Shown here one piece after another: positions 10,537 through 48,005 of a DNA stretch of 64,000 bases. This DNA comes from a virus (Duplodnaviria > Caudoviricetes): positions 1-64,000 of IMG/VR virus record IMGVR_UViG_3300028833_000144; one strand, written 5' to 3'. The notes beneath the pieces are model-generated. The model was not told the origin of the DNA, did not search any database, and worked only from the letters and a program-made list of their open reading frames with translations. Each line of letters opens with the position of its first letter. The first letter of the stretch is position 1. A program made the position numbers and the translations under genes.

Positions 10537-11114
10537 TAAACGTGATACCTCGCTCCAGGAATACTCTCTCCGATAGCAACTTTCAACACTTCCATTATCT
10601 TCCTACGCATAGGGTTATATACCCACGATGTTTTTCTTGCCTTTTCAGTCCAATGGTGTGTAGAACCTGCCGTTGTATAACCTTTTACATAAGCAACCTT
10701 GCCTGCGTTCTTCCCTTTTGAATAGACAACATAATGAGGTTTTCCAATATGGTGCATATCAGAAGCATACTTCTTCTTAACACCTTTTGGAGTACGCCAT
10801 ACATCTGTATAAAGACTATTGCCTTTAAAAACAGGATATACCGGCTCCATAGCAATACCTTCCCATTGATAATGAGCATACTTATTTGAAGGATTCTTTA
10901 CACCCCATATTACAGTTACTCTGTTCTTACCTACATAGGCTCTGTAACCTCTCTTCAATGCTCCCGTATCTTCCGGTGCAAAAGTTCCCATAGCTTCTGC
11001 GGTAATATCCCCAACCTCTTTCCATACGGAATCATCGGGACCTTTTTTTAACTGTGCAATAGCACGAGCAAAGAAATCAGTATTATCAAGTTGAATCTTT
11101 AAACCATCACTCAT
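10536..11114 (-). CDS. Neck / tail-completion (minor capsid 2-like) protein
   Basis: FAPEDTGAL..YAHYQWEG..HHW..KA pattern; neck module order. Confidence 0.6.
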   Translation of the reverse strand: MSDGLKIQLDNTDFFARAIAQLKKGPDDSVWKEVGDITAEAMGTFAPEDTGALKRGYRAYVGKNRVTVIWGVKNPSNKYAHYQWEGIAMEPVYPVFKGNSLYTDVWRTPKGVKKKYASDMHHIGKPHYVVYSKGKNAGKVAYVKGYTTAGSTHHWTEKARKTSWVYNPMRRKIMEVLKVAIGESIPGARYHV

Positions 11115-22652: not shown

Positions 22653-22820
22653 ATGAAACAGTATATTTATGAATTGCCAAAAAAAAGACAGAATAAAATC
22701 CGTAAACAAGTTATTGAATGTTTGCATGGTATTGTTTCATCGGATCGTTTGGAAAGTGAAGTCAATATCATTATGACCGGAACTATTAACGATTTACGTT
22801 ATTTGGAGGTGGAATTATGA
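22653..22820 (+). CDS. Small early hypothetical protein (55 aa)
   Basis: AAGGAGG SD, MKQYIYELPKKRQN..LEVEL; below ORF-track cutoff. Confidence 0.5.
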   Translation: MKQYIYELPKKRQNKIRKQVIECLHGIVSSDRLESEVNIIMTGTINDLRYLEVEL

Positions 22821-44114: not shown

Positions 44115-45044
44115 TTATAGGTATTTTTCAACATCTCCGATAATGCCTGTTTCTTCATCTCCAAAGTGTTTCTTACATACTGCTATGCAGAACTCTTCAA
44201 TTTCGCTACTCCACACAGGCTCACAACCACTTCTCTTAAAGACTAAACAGAAGCCGGATATGCCGTCAAAAAGGCTACCCATAGTAGGATTCTCTACCCC
44301 GTCTGCTTTAAGCTGCTTAACCATTCGATCAGCAAGAAATTGCCAATAAGGAAGTGCTATTGAATTACCTAAAGCCTTATATTTTGGTGCATCTGCTTCT
44401 TTGTGTTTCTTTCCGTTTTCGTCAACCCATTCTCCTATATCAACCCAAGTTTCTTCGTGTATTATTTGTTGAACTCTACTGTCACTTATCCCAAACATTT
44501 CTGACAAGTCTTTACAAGTAAAGTCTGTATTTTTATATATTAATTGAATTAAGTCGTGTTCTTCGTTACTTAATTTAGCCTGACCTGCATCTTCTTTAAT
44601 TTTATATAATCCATCTTTTCTTGCTTTTAAAGAATTTTGAGCAGATGTTAATAATTGAAGATTACATAAACGATTATCAGTTTTGTCATTGTTTATATGA
44701 TCTATAACATAACCATTTGGCAATACTCCATTAGCAGAAATCCAAATTATTCTGTGAACTCTACATTGAACTTTAGTATCTCCATTTCTTATATTAACAA
44801 CTAAATATCCTTTAAGATTACTTCCTTTTAATTCTTTTGGATTATCTAACTTAATTCCCCCAGGACCACGAGTAGCATAAACTTTTCCTGTGTTTACATC
44901 TGCTATAATATTTCCTTCATATAAATTCCAAGCGATATATTCATCTTTTGTCATTTCTGAAAATTTTACCGTTCTAACATTAGGAAAACCCTGCAATCTA
45001 CAACATTCCGTGGGCGTTAATCTTCTTACAACTGCATTAGGCAT
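44115..45044 (-). CDS. C5 DNA methyltransferase C-terminal subunit (motifs IX, X, I, II) with in-frame HNH insertion
   Basis: VRRLTPTECCRLQGFP, YKALGNSIA, SLFDGISGF, SEIEEF. Confidence 0.9.
   Translation of the reverse strand: MPNAVVRRLTPTECCRLQGFPNVRTVKFSEMTKDEYIAWNLYEGNIIADVNTGKVYATRGPGGIKLDNPKELKGSNLKGYLVVNIRNGDTKVQCRVHRIIWISANGVLPNGYVIDHINNDKTDNRLCNLQLLTSAQNSLKARKDGLYKIKEDAGQAKLSNEEHDLIQLIYKNTDFTCKDLSEMFGISDSRVQQIIHEETWVDIGEWVDENGKKHKEADAPKYKALGNSIALPYWQFLADRMVKQLKADGVENPTMGSLFDGISGFCLVFKRSGCEPVWSSEIEEFCIAVCKKHFGDEETGIIGDVEKYL
44454..44981 (-). mobile_element. HNH homing-endonuclease domain inserted in frame
   Basis: VHRIIW..VIDHINNDKTDNRLCNLQLLTSAQN plus C-terminal HTH; removal restores GFP-ET-WVDIG. 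Confidence 0.85.
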
Positions 45045-45545
45045 TTTTTCTTCTCCTTTATTAATAACATAGGGTGTGCAATTCCCCCCGTTCCGTACCT
45101 GGCTCTAACAGTTTCACACACATTATCAAACTGCTTATATCCATGATGTACGGAAGAATCATAAACACATTGAGCGTCTTTATAATCTCTGCTTCTCAAA
45201 CTAAACGCTACCCCCCGTATCAATTTTAGGTGTCATTTCTGTTGTCAGACATATTTCTTCGTTCATTTCTTACCTCTCTATTATCCAAGATATATATTTC
45301 TCCCCCCCGTATCTGCTTTCTCCTGCATATAAAGAATTACAAATACCATTAATATCGAGGATAGTTTTACTTTGAAAATCATTTTTATTAAGATTTATCA
45401 CCTTGTTCATCTTCTACCTCTTCAACAATTAAAACTAAAGGTATATGGTCACTATCAGTAGCAATATTAGTTAATGCTTTCGTTACCCCCCTGTTACAGT
45501 TTGGTTATAAGCATCTATTCCTATTACTACCTTTTCTTCTTTCAT
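45026..45545 (-). other. MTase variable-region (TRD-like) modules broken at G tracts
   Basis: Starts at 45545, 45410, 45266; G6/G7 tracts at 45486, 45302, 45211, 45084. Confidence 0.75.
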
Positions 45546-45949
45546 TTGCTCTCCCACTTTTCACAAGTATCGCATCTGTGCATATAGCACCCTTTTTCAA
45601 ATTTGCAATTACCATATCTACCCTCTTTGTGCTTATTAGAAACAGTCCAATTCTTACAATCTTGACAATACTTATGTGCTATTCCAAAAGACTGTAAGAC
45701 TTCTGTTTTAATTTCATCAAGATAACCCTCTATTCTCTTCTGTCGACCTATTTCTGTAAACCACTTTTCCTTGAACTTATCTCTTGCTTCGTTCCAATTA
45801 CCTTCTCCTGTATCTCCCGAAAGATACCACTCTCTGTCATGGAATAATTGAGCAAGGTCTTTTACAAGGTCATCAAGCTCTCTATCTTTAAAATCTCCAA
45901 CGTGTTCTTCTAATCTATTATAGAAATAATCTAAACTTCCACCACTCAT
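45542..45949 (-). CDS. Unrelated hypothetical protein (MSGGSLDY..) inserted among MTase modules
   Basis: Start at 45949; C-terminal Cys cluster. Confidence 0.65.
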   Translation of the reverse strand: MSGGSLDYFYNRLEEHVGDFKDRELDDLVKDLAQLFHDREWYLSGDTGEGNWNEARDKFKEKWFTEIGRQKRIEGYLDEIKTEVLQSFGIAHKYCQDCKNWTVSNKHKEGRYGNCKFEKGCYMHRCDTCEKWESK

Positions 45950-46164
45950 TTTTCTTCGTCCTCCTCTATTATTAAAATAGCCATTTGATCGTGCATACAA
46001 TTCAATGTATGACTTACCTCATAACTCATTGTCATAGCTTCCTGTACTTGTCCGTTACCTATGCACCAAGTACCCCCCCGTTTAGTCTTTAAGGGATATG
46101 ATGATCTTTCCTTCATCGACATATTGATTTCCAACCCCTTTATAATCTCTTGCACATAAAGCAC
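45946..46164 (-). CDS. MTase variable-region module
   Basis: CIGNGQ..TLNCMHDQ motif; same frame as 46165-47388, after its TAG. Confidence 0.55.
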   Translation of the reverse strand: MLYVQEIIKGLEINMSMKERSSYPLKTKRGGTWCIGNGQVQEAMTMSYEVSHTLNCMHDQMAILIIEEDEEK

Positions 46165-47388
46165 CTACGGTATCATTACCCCCCCAGGTCCCCTAGCAAC
46201 TAATGGTTGTGCTATTTCTTCTTGAATAGAAATATCATACTTTGCGTTTTTGCCTTGATTAAAAGAAGCTCTGTCAATACCAAGCACACAAGGAATATCG
46301 TGATTATCATTCTTACCATGTAATAAAGCATTGGTTCTATCTTCATTAATAGTAAGATCGTGAGAATTAACAACTAACATTCCACCTTGATTACAGGCAG
46401 GATTACCACCATTAAGATCAAGTGTTCTTGAAGTATCTGCCTCATAAATACCGCTATTCGGATTATCAGACTTCATAGCATTAGAATCATAAGAGGATAT
46501 TCCATAAGCTATAACTTCTCTTTCTATACCCGCTCTTTCTCCGCACCCTTTATAATAAGAAGCGTCAATAGGAGCTGCTATGTCATTCCCGTTTATGTTG
46601 CAAGACTGACTGATTATTGAGGGTTGACAATGTTCCTGTTCGTTCTTCTTGTATGAGGATTCCTTTACCCCCCCATTTTTGCCTGCTCTTTCTTGGAAGG
46701 ACAAAGCTCCTTTGCCTGTTTCTCCAATGTCGTCTTGAGCAGTTCCGGTAACTCTTTCTTCCTCGCTTCTGCTCTCCTCAATATTCCTGCACTCGCTTTC
46801 GCACTCAAATTGTAACGAGGGTGCGGATAGTCCTCCAAAATCTGCGACAACCGAGATTCTTCTGCGACGCTGCGGTGTCCCCAACGCAATAACATCTCCT
46901 GTATCGCTATCTCTGATGGTTTTTCCCCAGTATTGAGCGTCATGTGTTCTCCACGATATACTAAAGGGAGTTCCATCATCTCCCACTCCATCAATGCTTC
47001 CTGCGTAGTGCCACCCCTCTTTAGGGATAGGAATAGGGGGGCAGTCCTTGCAGACAACTTTACAGATTTCTTGTAAGACCGCTTGGAAGTCTGCTCCTTT
47101 ATTTGAGGAATAGCAGCCAACAACATTTTCGTAGACGGCAAACCGAGGTCGAATATTGATACCTGTCCTTCCATTACTTCTATCATCTTCTCGCATCTCC
47201 TTTATGATTCTTATTGCTTCAAAAAATAAACCCGATCTTGTTTCTTCGTCATCTTGATTAAGTTTGCTTTTCATTCCGGCTCTCTTTCCTGCTATACTTA
47301 AATCCTGGCAAGGAGCTCCGAAAGTTATAATATTGACTTTAGGTGTTTTTGAGCCATCTATTTTTTGAATATCCCCATAGTGAATCAT
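46165..47388 (-). CDS. C5 DNA methyltransferase N-terminal subunit (motifs III-VIII plus variable region)
   Basis: GDI, catalytic PCQ, RSGLF, ENV, QRRRR; no motif I at N-terminus. Confidence 0.92.
   Translation of the reverse strand: MIHYGDIQKIDGSKTPKVNIITFGAPCQDLSIAGKRAGMKSKLNQDDEETRSGLFFEAIRIIKEMREDDRSNGRTGINIRPRFAVYENVVGCYSSNKGADFQAVLQEICKVVCKDCPPIPIPKEGWHYAGSIDGVGDDGTPFSISWRTHDAQYWGKTIRDSDTGDVIALGTPQRRRRISVVADFGGLSAPSLQFECESECRNIEESRSEEERVTGTAQDDIGETGKGALSFQERAGKNGGVKESSYKKNEQEHCQPSIISQSCNINGNDIAAPIDASYYKGCGERAGIEREVIAYGISSYDSNAMKSDNPNSGIYEADTSRTLDLNGGNPACNQGGMLVVNSHDLTINEDRTNALLHGKNDNHDIPCVLGIDRASFNQGKNAKYDISIQEEIAQPLVARGPGGVMIP
46665..47186 (-). CDS. Overlapping alternative-frame ORF, M.EcoHK31I beta-subunit-like
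   Basis: HMTLNTGE..SRLSQILE..YNLS..GILRRA..LP..L motif recalled from dual-coded C5 MTases; ends on G7 tract. Confidence 0.6.
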   Translation of the reverse strand: MIEVMEGQVSIFDLGLPSTKMLLAAIPQIKEQTSKRSYKKSVKLSARTAPLFLSLKRGGTTQEALMEWEMMELPLVYRGEHMTLNTGEKPSEIAIQEMLLRWGHRSVAEESRLSQILEDYPHPRYNLSAKASAGILRRAEARKKELPELLKTTLEKQAKELCPSKKEQAKMGG

Positions 47389-48005
47389 CGTGTAATCTCC
47401 TTATATTTCCATTTATAACCACAAGCTGTTTTGCTTTTGTTTGTTAAACACATTCTGATGTTTCGAGTGGAAGTTTTTAATTTTCTTGCAGCTTCACTTA
47501 TACTTTCATACTCTTTAATAAAATTTCCATCATTATCGAATTGATAAACAGGGTGCATAAATCTTATGTGCGATATACGATTTTTCTCTTTTTCTTCTTC
47601 CGTTCTTTTCTTTCTATAATTGCCATTATTTATTCCACTATGTTTGCCTTTTTGAGATATTCTCATTTTATTTTTTGTTGCTTCATTATGCTTTAATCCC
47701 TTCCAAACGCAAATTCCCCCTTTAGATATATTGTAACCAACATTAGGATCGGTAGAATTGAATTGTGCTATATACTTAATCTCCGCAGCATCAGCTTCGT
47801 CTTTTGTTAAGTTATCTTCGAGTATTTCTGATTTTAGAAATTTTTTATCAATAAAAGACATAGCATCTTTCATTCGTTGATTATGTTGATAACCTGATTC
47901 AATTCTTTTTTGAATGGTATGTTTTGTCATACCTATATAAATCATTCCGTCCGGAAATGTATGCTTATATACTTTATAGATACGTTCTTCCATACCCAAC
48001 CTCAT
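47385..48005 (-). CDS. GIY-YIG homing endonuclease with NUMOD3/NUMOD1-like C-terminus
   Basis: VYKHT..IYIGMT..E..YI..GYN; HNEATK.KM; VYQF..G.FIKEYESISEAA..YKWKY. Confidence 0.88.
   Translation of the reverse strand: MRLGMEERIYKVYKHTFPDGMIYIGMTKHTIQKRIESGYQHNQRMKDAMSFIDKKFLKSEILEDNLTKDEADAAEIKYIAQFNSTDPNVGYNISKGGICVWKGLKHNEATKNKMRISQKGKHSGINNGNYRKKRTEEEKEKNRISHIRFMHPVYQFDNDGNFIKEYESISEAARKLKTSTRNIRMCLTNKSKTACGYKWKYKEITR

Follow-up and report, generated by a model that had tools for sequence, protein, structure and literature searches.

Phase-variable methyltransferases are well known in bacterial pathogens. The Bacillus phages SPR, phi3T, rho11s and H2 encode multispecific C5 methyltransferases, in which tandem short TRDs are inserted between motifs VIII and IX of one catalytic core; these enzymes are single polypeptides with the canonical motif order and without repeats. 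Switching between specificity modules has been described for NgoAV of Neisseria gonorrhoeae, where a G tract of 6-9 nucleotides among strains, mostly 7, separates the two modules hsdS1 and hsdS2 (PMC9577141, citing Adamczyk-Poplawska 2011). Loss of one G fuses the modules and changes the recognised sequence, and some tract lengths yield no active protein (PMC9577141). Phages also carry such tracts, including G7-G11 in receptor-binding genes of Fletchervirus, homopolymers of 6 or more in T2/T4, and poly-G in the BPP-1 methylase (10.1101/2025.10.21.683753). That report ascribes to these phage contingency loci, one of which lies in a methylase gene, homopolymer slippage, reversible frameshifts and mixed populations; the loci it covers are whole-gene on/off switches, none of which rewires recognition modules or places seven tracts in one enzyme. 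Two-part C5 enzymes have precedents in M.AquI, which has two subunits, and in M.EcoHK31I, whose beta chain is read from a different frame within the gene for alpha (PMC2836561, PMC5944983), and natural circularly permuted C5 methyltransferases (M.BssHII and others) place motif X before motif I (PMC5944983).

We analysed a 64-kb stretch of phage DNA (hereafter the window) from gut or rumen metagenomes. Judged by the motifs that it encodes, a locus on the minus strand is a predicted multispecific phage C5 cytosine methyltransferase. It is circularly permuted and split in two, with motifs III/IV-VIII in the alpha part and IX, X and I-II in the C-terminal part. Like NgoAV, it has short G tracts between specificity modules. 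NgoAV, however, belongs to the bacterial type I N6-adenine systems and has a single tract with two modules, whereas the phage locus is a C5 system with seven tracts (T1 to T7) and about eight modules, and unlike NgoAV it combines a split, permuted catalytic core with an overlapping-frame gene at one junction. In contrast to the Bacillus phage enzymes, its recognition modules occupy separate cistrons gated by G tracts. The tandem module arrangement of those multispecific enzymes is nevertheless found here: single-ORF homologues carry the same modules in frame between motifs VIII and IX, in mosaic order, and we regard the modules as TRDs for this reason. The original prediction knew of no description of such switching for phage methyltransferases. 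We likewise found no published description of multi-tract TRD switching, but poly-G in the BPP-1 methylase has already been noted, as cited in 10.1101/2025.10.21.683753.

The catalytic core is distributed over at least two ORFs, in the order III/IV-VIII, TRDs, IX, X, I-II, rather than running from I to X on one polypeptide.

46165..47388, minus strand: ORF A, 407 aa as assembled, the alpha part of the methyltransferase
44115..45044, minus strand: ORF C, 309 aa, with its own SD and ATG, the C-terminal part

ORF A matches PF00145 (E=1e-17, profile positions 46-130) and runs from GDI through PCQ (motif IV, GAPCQDLS), ENV (VI, YENV) and QRRRR (VIII, PQRRRR) to a linker and, via T1, the TRD modules, ending 4 codons past T2. 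ORF C begins with motif IX (RRLTPTECCRLQGFP), continues through an HNH_3 and HTH insertion to motif X (YKALGNS), and carries motifs I-II at its C-terminus (motif I, SLFDGISGF), where residues 255-306 match profile positions 3-51 of PF00145. As in M.BssHII, X precedes I, with the break here between motifs II and III; residues 403-447 of a homologue (L023) align to residues 11-55 of M.HhaI, as expected of a circular permutation. The alpha and C-terminal parts of a related contig (L084) were modelled as a complex that scored 0.92, against 0.01 for the best control, although the two together make up a fold known from solved single-chain relatives, and the score may reflect that likeness. The mark applied to such models is reached by 58 of 80 solved complexes and by 2 of 110 mismatched pairs; contact agreement between runs was at least 76% and partner pLDDT at least 64. 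The HNH_3 and HTH insertion (about 44451-44981; HNH_3 E=3e-17) is in frame. We rejected an intron or intein as its identity, since it leaves no space for non-coding sequence and lacks both a Cys/Ser start and a His-Asn end.

The prediction had placed seven poly-G tracts between 45084 and 46674 on the minus strand, the coding strand of the locus, and all seven positions were confirmed. It had also called such runs scarce elsewhere. The plus strand of the whole window contains four C7 and four C6 runs; these tracts account for every C7 run and all but one of the C6 runs. For 45050-46700, 0.25 G>=6 runs would be expected and seven are observed (Poisson P(>=7) = 9e-9), and GGG makes up 7% of glycine codons in the other long ORFs of the window. 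The assembled T3 is already in frame, which leaves six tracts at frame junctions, as claimed. T1, T2, T4, T5 and T7 are each one G short of the alternative reading quoted for them, T6 is in frame at G5 or G8, and every quoted reading at alternative length could be reproduced (e.g., YGGGEIYIL at 45302 and GTGGNCTPYV..KMPNAVVRRL at 45084). Five of the six on/off tracts (T2-T7) are OFF in the assembled window. A G-quadruplex or recombination-site role for the tracts was considered and rejected; the runs are 100-600 nt apart and have only G(n)TA in common.

T1 lies where ORF A, a second gene in the +1 frame and a recognition module meet; n denotes the number of G residues in a tract.

46665..47186, minus strand: overlapping +1-frame ORF, 173 aa, within ORF A; its stop is the TAA directly after T1
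46668..46674, minus strand: tract T1, G7, with conserved flanks; n is 7 in the window, 6 in L084, 8 in L086, 8 in L087, 7 in L088 and 7 in L090
46589..46667, minus strand: module A (GKGILIQEERTGTLSTLNNQSV), out of frame as assembled

The overlapping ORF encodes a conserved tail (LSQILE..PRYNLSAKASAGILRRAEARKKELPELL) and has 100 called homologues; in many phages it forms the N-terminus of a 440-670 aa beta subunit. Pfam returned no match for it, and its structure model (mean pLDDT 62), which is confident in the C-terminal helices only, had no Foldseek match in the PDB with E<2. The locus resembles M.AquI and M.EcoHK31I in having two polypeptides split near the variable region and a further product encoded in a frame that overlaps the catalytic gene. 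As in M.EcoHK31I, the second ORF occupies an alternative frame of that gene (173 codons, present in 81 of 84 sources scanned) and bears a selection signature in its own frame, codon-position entropy switching to that frame over the last ~48 codons. The EcoHK31I beta chain, however, carries motif IX, whereas the overlapping ORF is without motif IX and has a different conserved tail (LSQILE..GILRRA..), leading in many relatives into TRDs, IX, X and I. Neither M.AquI nor M.EcoHK31I has repeat tracts or a permutation of this kind.

Each T1 length selects a different pair of continuations. At n=7 the main frame proceeds into the linker and the downstream modules and the overlapping ORF stops; at n=6 a TAA ends the main frame and the overlapping ORF enters module A; at n=8 the main frame enters module A and the overlapping ORF proceeds to the downstream modules. 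All three states were found among natural genomes. The DNA of module A, read in the frame of ORF A, encodes the linker VKESSYKKNEQEHCQPSIISQS. In six of six clade members the module-A frame is open for 25-32 codons, the linker frame is open into the next modules, and the third frame is an immediate TAA; nucleotide entropy in the module-A frame of clade members peaks at position 3, and a GGGKG(A/I)L(V/I)Q module is in frame within intact homologues. Our analysis refines the first reading of this junction, in that T1 would also control a conserved overlapping +1-frame gene.

Downstream of T1 the remaining modules and tracts follow in close succession.

46179..46185, minus strand: tract T2, G7 (OFF); G8 joins ..LVARGPGG to module D
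46085..46178, minus strand: module D (NDTVGALCARDYKGVGNQYVDEGKIIISLKD), with a TAA end just before T3
45946..46122, minus strand: cistron e (MSMKERSSYPLKTKRGG-TWCIGNGQ..MHDQMAILIIEEDEEK), 58 aa, containing T3
46073..46079, minus strand: tract T3, G7, ON in the window; n is 7 in the window, 6 in L084, 8 in L086, 8 in L042, 8 in L087, 6 in L088, 7 in L090 and 6 in L100
45542..45949, minus strand: inserted Cys-rich ORF, 135 aa, with no methyltransferase similarity
45391..45545, minus strand: cistron f (MKEEKVVIGIDAYNQTVTGG / VTKALTNIATDSDHIPLVL..), split by T4
45486..45491, minus strand: tract T4, G6 (OFF, immediate TAA), in frame at G7; n is 6 in the window, 6 in L084, 7 in L087 and 8 in L090
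45229..45410, minus strand: cistron g (MNKVINL..LYAGESRYGG / GEIYILD..), split by T5
45302..45308, minus strand: tract T5, G7 (OFF), in frame at G8; n is 7 in the window and 7 in L042
45090..45266, minus strand: cistron h (MNEEICLTTEMTPKIDTGG / VAFSLRSRDYKD..VHHGYKQFDNVCETVRARYGTGG), split by T6, with T7 between h and ORF C
45211..45216, minus strand: tract T6, G6 (OFF); n is 6 in the window, 7 in L086, 8 in L100 and 6 in L087 (different next base)
45084..45089, minus strand: tract T7, G6 (OFF); one added base joins module h to motif IX of ORF C

An SD and an ATG are visible in the sequence before the module cistrons, as had been predicted for several modules. Cistron e starts within the end of module D in a different frame, is called as a gene in contig L099, and has a dN/dS of 0.0-0.16; its stop overlaps the ATG of the Cys-rich ORF (ATGA), and relatives have different small Cys-rich ORFs at the same position. 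A Pfam search gave no match for the Cys-rich ORF or the small module ORFs. pN/pS was 0.09 for module D (10 loci), 0.11 before and 0.14 after T4 in cistron f, 0.12 and 0.11 on the two sides of T5 in cistron g (compared with L042), and 0.00-0.06 in cistron h. T2 is G8 in L084, L042, L087 and L088 and G7 in the window, L086, L085, L089, L090 and L100; T7 is in frame in L084, L042 and L087 and out of frame in the window, L090 and L100. Modules e, f and g end at real stops, which rule out any fusion to a neighbour; their tracts therefore serve as per-cistron on/off switches rather than wiring, and even when ON these cistrons would yield free peptides of 52-61 aa. We know of no C5 methyltransferase that uses a detached TRD. 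A scan for promoters and terminators found sites no more numerous than in shuffled sequence, and thus no evidence for separate transcription units.

A survey of homologous methyltransferases for tracts at the same codons had been proposed as a check. We drew relatives from IMG/VR, JGI metagenomes, ENA and Logan, each with the same design, and ten related contigs (L042, L084-L090, L100) retained pure G tracts at homologous sites within near-identical 40-nt flanks. The 48 tract lengths comprised 14 G6, 19 G7 and 15 G8, none interrupted or outside 6-8, and both purity and range persist although dS reaches about 1 or more. G>=6 runs number 6-7 in five clade members against about 0.45 expected; the 57 tract-free homologues have 5 against 47 expected. 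Between relatives of 90-97% identity, frame-breaking indels occur at the tracts only, apart from an 8-nt insertion in the catalytic PCQ motif of L085 and L086, which suggests a possible loss of activity in some lineages. The remaining gaps comprise exchanges of whole modules, a single in-frame gap of 3 nt, pairs that compensate each other and ragged ends of alignments. In a 565-nt alignment of the window with L100, there are 18 substitutions and a single indel, at T3. The halves before and after the tracts have a pN/pS of 0.0-0.2, each in its own frame. As in contingency loci, a coding homopolymer sets the frame, its length varies between close relatives within conserved flanks, much more often than indels arise at other sites, and selection acts on both sides; a length of G6-G8 is on the short side for a classical contingency locus. 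Every genome has at least one tract out of frame.

The same strain was also assembled separately as contig L099 (59.7 kb), which matches the window without a difference across 9,224 nt, all seven tract lengths included. This agreement makes assembly error unlikely, and identical lengths in two assemblies of one strain indicate that any switching would be too slow to blur consensus sequences. We rejected L092 and L096, from a second clade and other metagenomes, as a case of near-isogenic switching: in three samples each, G6 went together with a TGA substitution and a second SNP. As their sequences read, G7 and G6 in this second clade are stable haplotypes, not scrambled states or fast switching. 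A megablast search of the 4.1-kb region against GenBank phages returned only a single 162-nt match, and the exact T3 pattern had no match among prokaryote genome contigs, hence no prophage or host was identified.

We consider it probable that selected slippery tracts rewire a multispecific split methyltransferase through heritable, reversible changes in length. The runs are most likely mutational switches, because related phages carry them at other lengths. The TRD modules are broken into a string of small cistrons, each with a ribosome-binding site and start codon, and replication slippage that adds or removes one G, heritably and reversibly, would shift the reading frame. A module would thereby be completed, truncated at an adjacent stop (TAA or TAG after many tracts), or joined to another polypeptide. 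T1 would serve as a three-way selector among the catalytic frame, the overlapping +1-frame gene, module A and the downstream modules, and T7 would set whether module h fuses to the IX-X-I subunit; these G runs may in addition provoke slippage of RNA polymerase or of the ribosome. If the pieces form an active enzyme whose specificity changes with its modules, a phage population would contain many variants differing in the recognition modules expressed, and so in the sequences carrying 5mC. Such a mixture would spread the risk of meeting hosts that differ in their restriction systems and methylation-dependent nucleases.

It is unlikely, in our judgement, that the length of the DNA tract is nearly irrelevant, with polymerase stuttering or ribosomal slippage producing a constant mixture of frames, all products made in every infected cell, and length differences reflecting neutral drift. 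Shifty stops are known, as is transcriptional slippage that rescues frameshifted homopolymers. Tract length moves freely among 6, 7 and 8 at each site, with purifying selection maintained on either side, as expected if any length yields some in-frame product. G GGG GGG permits glycine tRNA re-pairing in the -1 frame; in the assembled frame, TAA, TAG or an early stop comes after five of the seven tracts. G/C runs of 6-8, however, serve bacterial RNA polymerase slippage less well than A/T runs of at least 9. Slippage in decoding is compatible with switching at the DNA level, and both may act.

A decaying pseudogene, in which homopolymers would be the first place for frameshifts once selection was lost, seems to us quite improbable. 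Several tracts are out of frame in every clade genome, the PCQ insertion is present in two relatives, and the locus is crowded with selfish inserts (an upstream GIY-YIG gene, the HNH insertion, and an intein in L042). Decay is nevertheless difficult to reconcile with a pN/pS of 0.0-0.4 in every segment, OFF modules included, at dS up to about 1 or more, or with the lack of frame-breaking indels or stops outside the tracts, the PCQ insertion excepted. The tracts also stay pure G within 6-8 in an AT-rich genome where GGG is rare, and the dual-frame junction at T1 and the SD and ATG before each cistron are conserved. Sequencing or assembly errors in one continuous ORF can be dismissed as hardly credible: every break does fall at a single-base homopolymer in a metagenome assembly of unstated platform, but the separate contig repeats all seven lengths over 9.2 kb, the exact 407-aa ORF A protein occurs on three long contigs, relatives from other sources share the design, real stops separate D/e, f/g and g/h so that no set of lengths yields one ORF, and A/T runs do not break genes (20 of the 36 A/T runs of at least 6 in the window sit well inside long open frames, with none seen to break one). 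On that last point, the prediction had long A/T runs and a G6 at 47036 in frame; the run of seven T at 11043 and the C6 at 47036-41 do lie in frame inside long ORFs, but the A8 at 22679 falls only in a 55-codon ORF and so supports the point weakly.

Heritable switching by tract length thus remains our preferred reading. The claim that length selects which TRD modules are attached holds in part. It agrees with tracts that are conserved against codon bias, held at 6-8 and the sole sites of frame-breaking indels between close relatives, with the joins made in silico and with purifying selection, but it does not extend to e, f and g as fusion partners. More tentatively, seven tracts with three length classes each might constitute a heritable combinatorial switchboard over about eight modules and their attachment to the alpha, C-terminal or overlapping-frame protein; one lineage would then continually yield progeny with different 5mC methylomes, a hedge against host restriction enzymes and methylation-dependent nucleases.

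Homopolymer contingency loci have been argued for phages only recently. The gene family described here also offers a well-supported overlapping gene and a natural circular permutation outside the variable region, and is a hot spot for homing endonucleases and inteins. Tract switching would help to explain why these phage methyltransferase genes so frequently look frameshifted, and are annotated as fragments or pseudogenes, in metagenome assemblies. The system can be rebuilt in a laboratory strain, as defined tract lengths are clonable and the methylated motifs directly readable. If the proposed explanation is true, several tracts gating separate recognition modules would be a compact means to diversify anti-restriction methylation.

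All seven runs of G named in the original prediction were found where it had placed them, in a C5 cytosine methyltransferase gene. In 64 kb, that base pair forms four runs of 7 bases and four of 6; all of the former and three of the latter are these tracts. By chance, 0.25 runs would be expected across the 1.65 kb they occupy (P ~9e-9). GGG represents 7% of the glycine codons in the window's other long ORFs, so the runs oppose the codon bias. G runs of at least 6 were ten times rarer than expected in 57 tract-free homologues of higher G+C (5 vs 47), whereas five members of the low-G+C clade had about fifteen times as many as expected. The window belongs to a 74-kb IMG/VR virus record.

Features of the methyltransferase locus in the window
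47388 to 44115, minus strand: C5 cytosine methyltransferase (PF00145)
46165-47388, minus strand: ORF A, the alpha part; starts at the GDI motif and carries PCQ, ENV and QRRRR (PF00145 profile positions 46-130)
46665-47186, minus strand: +1-frame ORF within the catalytic part, also in L004-L083 and L084-L098
46668-46674, 46179-46185, 46073-46079, 45486-45491, 45302-45308, 45211-45216 and 45084-45089, minus strand: tracts T1 to T7
46589-46667 and 46085-46178, minus strand: modules A and D
45946-46122, 45391-45545, 45229-45410 and 45090-45266, minus strand: cistrons e, f, g and h (module h)
44115-45044, minus strand: ORF C, the C-terminal part; motif IX, an in-frame HNH_3 and HTH insertion, motif X, then a terminal motif I (profile 3-51)

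The interval between ORF A and ORF C is occupied by short segments in all three frames, which are the tandem target-recognition modules (TRDs) of a multispecific enzyme. In an alignment of a single-ORF homologue with M.HhaI, the C-terminal 45 residues of the homologue matched HhaI 11-55 and its N-terminal 89 matched HhaI 58-136; members of this family are therefore circularly permuted between motifs II and III. Permuted members (44115-47388, minus strand, in the window; L004, L021 and L023 among related contigs) start with GDI..PCQ and end with FxGxG..EIE.., and single-ORF relatives include both permuted and unpermuted forms. In a 2018 REBASE survey, natural C5 methyltransferase permutations were confined to the variable region (PMC5944983). 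When the alpha and C-terminal parts were modelled for the relative L084, the score was 0.92 (best control, 0.01), passing a mark that 58 of 80 solved complexes and 2 of 110 mismatched pairs reached; contact agreement between runs was at least 76%, and partner pLDDT was at least 64. Because the two parts are halves of one fold for which single-chain relatives have been solved, this pass may only reflect likeness to those structures.

The locus also carries inserted elements. An HNH_3 endonuclease with a sigma-70 region-4-like HTH (window 44451-44981, minus strand) lies in frame between GFPN and ETWVDIG (motifs IX/X), lacks the hallmarks of inteins and introns, and is missing from L084, L042, L087 and L090. 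Directly upstream of the methyltransferase, each relative has a different homing-endonuclease-type gene of the GIY-YIG/NUMOD1, HNH_3 or NUMOD3 kind (window 47385-48005, minus strand; L084:5304-5807; L085:5154-5807; L086:1698-2363). The PCQ catalytic motif is interrupted by short insertions starting with TAG (L085:5890-5915, L086:2470-2495, L092-L098 near 2870-2900): 8 nt after CAA in L085 and L086, TAGTACAT or TAGCGCAT, and 4 nt (TAGC or TAGA) between TGT and CAG in L092-L098. Downstream of the insertions the catalytic frame still appears conserved, and they may represent a scar, a recoding site or a deliberate split. A full intein occupies this site in L042; together with the upstream genes, it identifies the locus as a selfish-element hot spot.

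We surveyed homologues for tracts at corresponding codons, as had been proposed. Relatives sharing the design came from IMG/VR (L042), ENA or Logan (L084, L085, L086) and JGI metagenomes (L087-L090 and L100). Homologous sites were occupied within near-identical 40-nt flanks, and the lengths differed.

Tract lengths in the window (W) and its relatives
T1: W 7, L084 6, L086 8, L087 8, L088 7, L090 7
T2: 7 in W, L086, L085, L089, L090 and L100; 8 in L084, L042, L087 and L088
T3: W 7, L084 6, L086 8, L042 8, L087 8, L088 6, L090 7, L100 6
T4: 6, 6, 7, 8
T6: 6, 7, 6, 8
T7: 6, 6, 6, 7, 8, 7

None of the 48 tract observations (14 G6, 19 G7 and 15 G8) was interrupted or fell outside 6-8. In pairwise alignments at 90-97% identity, frame-breaking indels were those at the tracts; the other gaps were whole-module replacements, one 3-nt in-frame gap, paired compensating gaps and ragged alignment ends. 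TRD cassettes are exchanged entire between phages 94-97% identical elsewhere (window 46510-46604, minus strand, against L084, L086, L087 and L088): this cassette reads CNINGNDIAAPIDASYYKG.. in the window and CIAYATQACGDRDNPSQS.. in L084 and L087, and is absent from L086.

The +1-frame ORF (133-178 codons) was present in 81 of 84 sources scanned, intact tract-free genes included. By codon-position entropy, the methyltransferase frame is the one selected over its first ~84 codons; over the last ~48 (LSQIL..KYxLSxKAxxGILRRAxxRGKELP..), variation is highest at the +1-frame third position. The predicted protein has a disordered N-terminus and a confidently helical C-terminus, with no PDB match for the structure. 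Gene callers report the ORF a hundred times as a 150-190 aa protein, and also as the N-terminus of 440-670 aa beta-type proteins that extend across the TRDs and motifs IX, X and I. The family therefore alternates between two arrangements: either the main frame is fused and the +1 protein short, or the alpha is short and the beta long. The known precedent is M.EcoHK31I, in which a different frame of the alpha gene encodes the beta chain (PMC2836561).

T1 is a three-way junction, retained by each of the six members carrying the tract. It is entered by the catalytic frame and by a 173-codon +1-frame ORF; the frames that leave are module A (GKGILIQ.., 25-32 codons), a linker open into the downstream modules, and an immediate TAA. 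G7 (window, L088, L090) takes the catalytic frame on into the downstream modules and ends the +1 ORF; G6 (L084) ends the catalytic frame and attaches module A to the +1 ORF; with G8 (L086, L087) module A goes to the catalytic frame and the downstream modules to the +1 ORF. T2 would add or withhold module D. T3-T6 lie one per small cistron; every such cistron has a Shine-Dalgarno sequence and an ATG of its own, and each tract would complete or truncate its cistron. T7 would either fuse module h to motif IX or leave ORF C starting from its own ATG. In the assembled window, T1 leads the main frame into the downstream modules, T3 is in frame, and T2, T4, T5, T6 and T7 are out of frame. Cistrons e, f and g would yield detached peptides of 52-61 aa; we know of no functional detached TRD. 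Small Cys-rich ORFs of no known family, which vary between relatives, interrupt the series of TRD cistrons and are translationally coupled to them through overlapping ATGA (window 45542-45949, minus strand; L084:7282-7744; L086:3753-4157).

In L092-L098, which form a second clade from different metagenomes, G7/G6 at the homologous RIRGG tract toggles the beta protein, 465 aa vs 186 + 278 aa. These states were linked to other substitutions and are therefore stable haplotypes. In a higher-G+C clade, L021 has G8 at 1752 and G7 at 2043; G8 falls at WGG codons within the catalytic domain, and the database proteins P0033 and P0098 switch from methyltransferase to +1 frame exactly at this point.

The closest known mechanism is the NgoAV poly-G tract between hsdS1 and hsdS2, which has 6-9 G among strains; there, dropping a single G joins two specificity modules and alters the target (PMC9577141). 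Among phages, contingency loci have been reported in Fletchervirus receptor-binding genes and in T2/T4, and a poly-G tract has been noted in the BPP-1 methylase gene, as cited in a preprint (10.1101/2025.10.21.683753). Our literature search found no phage C5 enzyme described as having separate TRD modules gated by several tracts.

An assembly artefact is very unlikely, as the window is matched identically over 9,224 nt, all seven lengths included, by a 59.7-kb contig assembled separately (JGI sample 3300031992). Consensus lengths are thus stable over the time scale separating two assemblies of one strain. The 407-aa ORF A product was found on three long contigs. True stop codons lie between module D and cistron e, between f and g, and between g and h, and one continuous ORF is therefore impossible at any set of tract lengths. 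Decay of the gene is also unlikely: dN/dS was 0.05-0.4 in the catalytic part, modules and C-terminal part, with dS up to ~1 or more.

Judged from sequence, decoding may occur at the DNA, RNA or ribosome level. Each half flanking T4, T5 and T6, computed separately in its own frame, had a pN/pS of 0.0-0.14, despite the halves being mutually out of frame in most genomes. The joined product must therefore be exposed to selection often enough, which requires frequent length change or slippage during expression.
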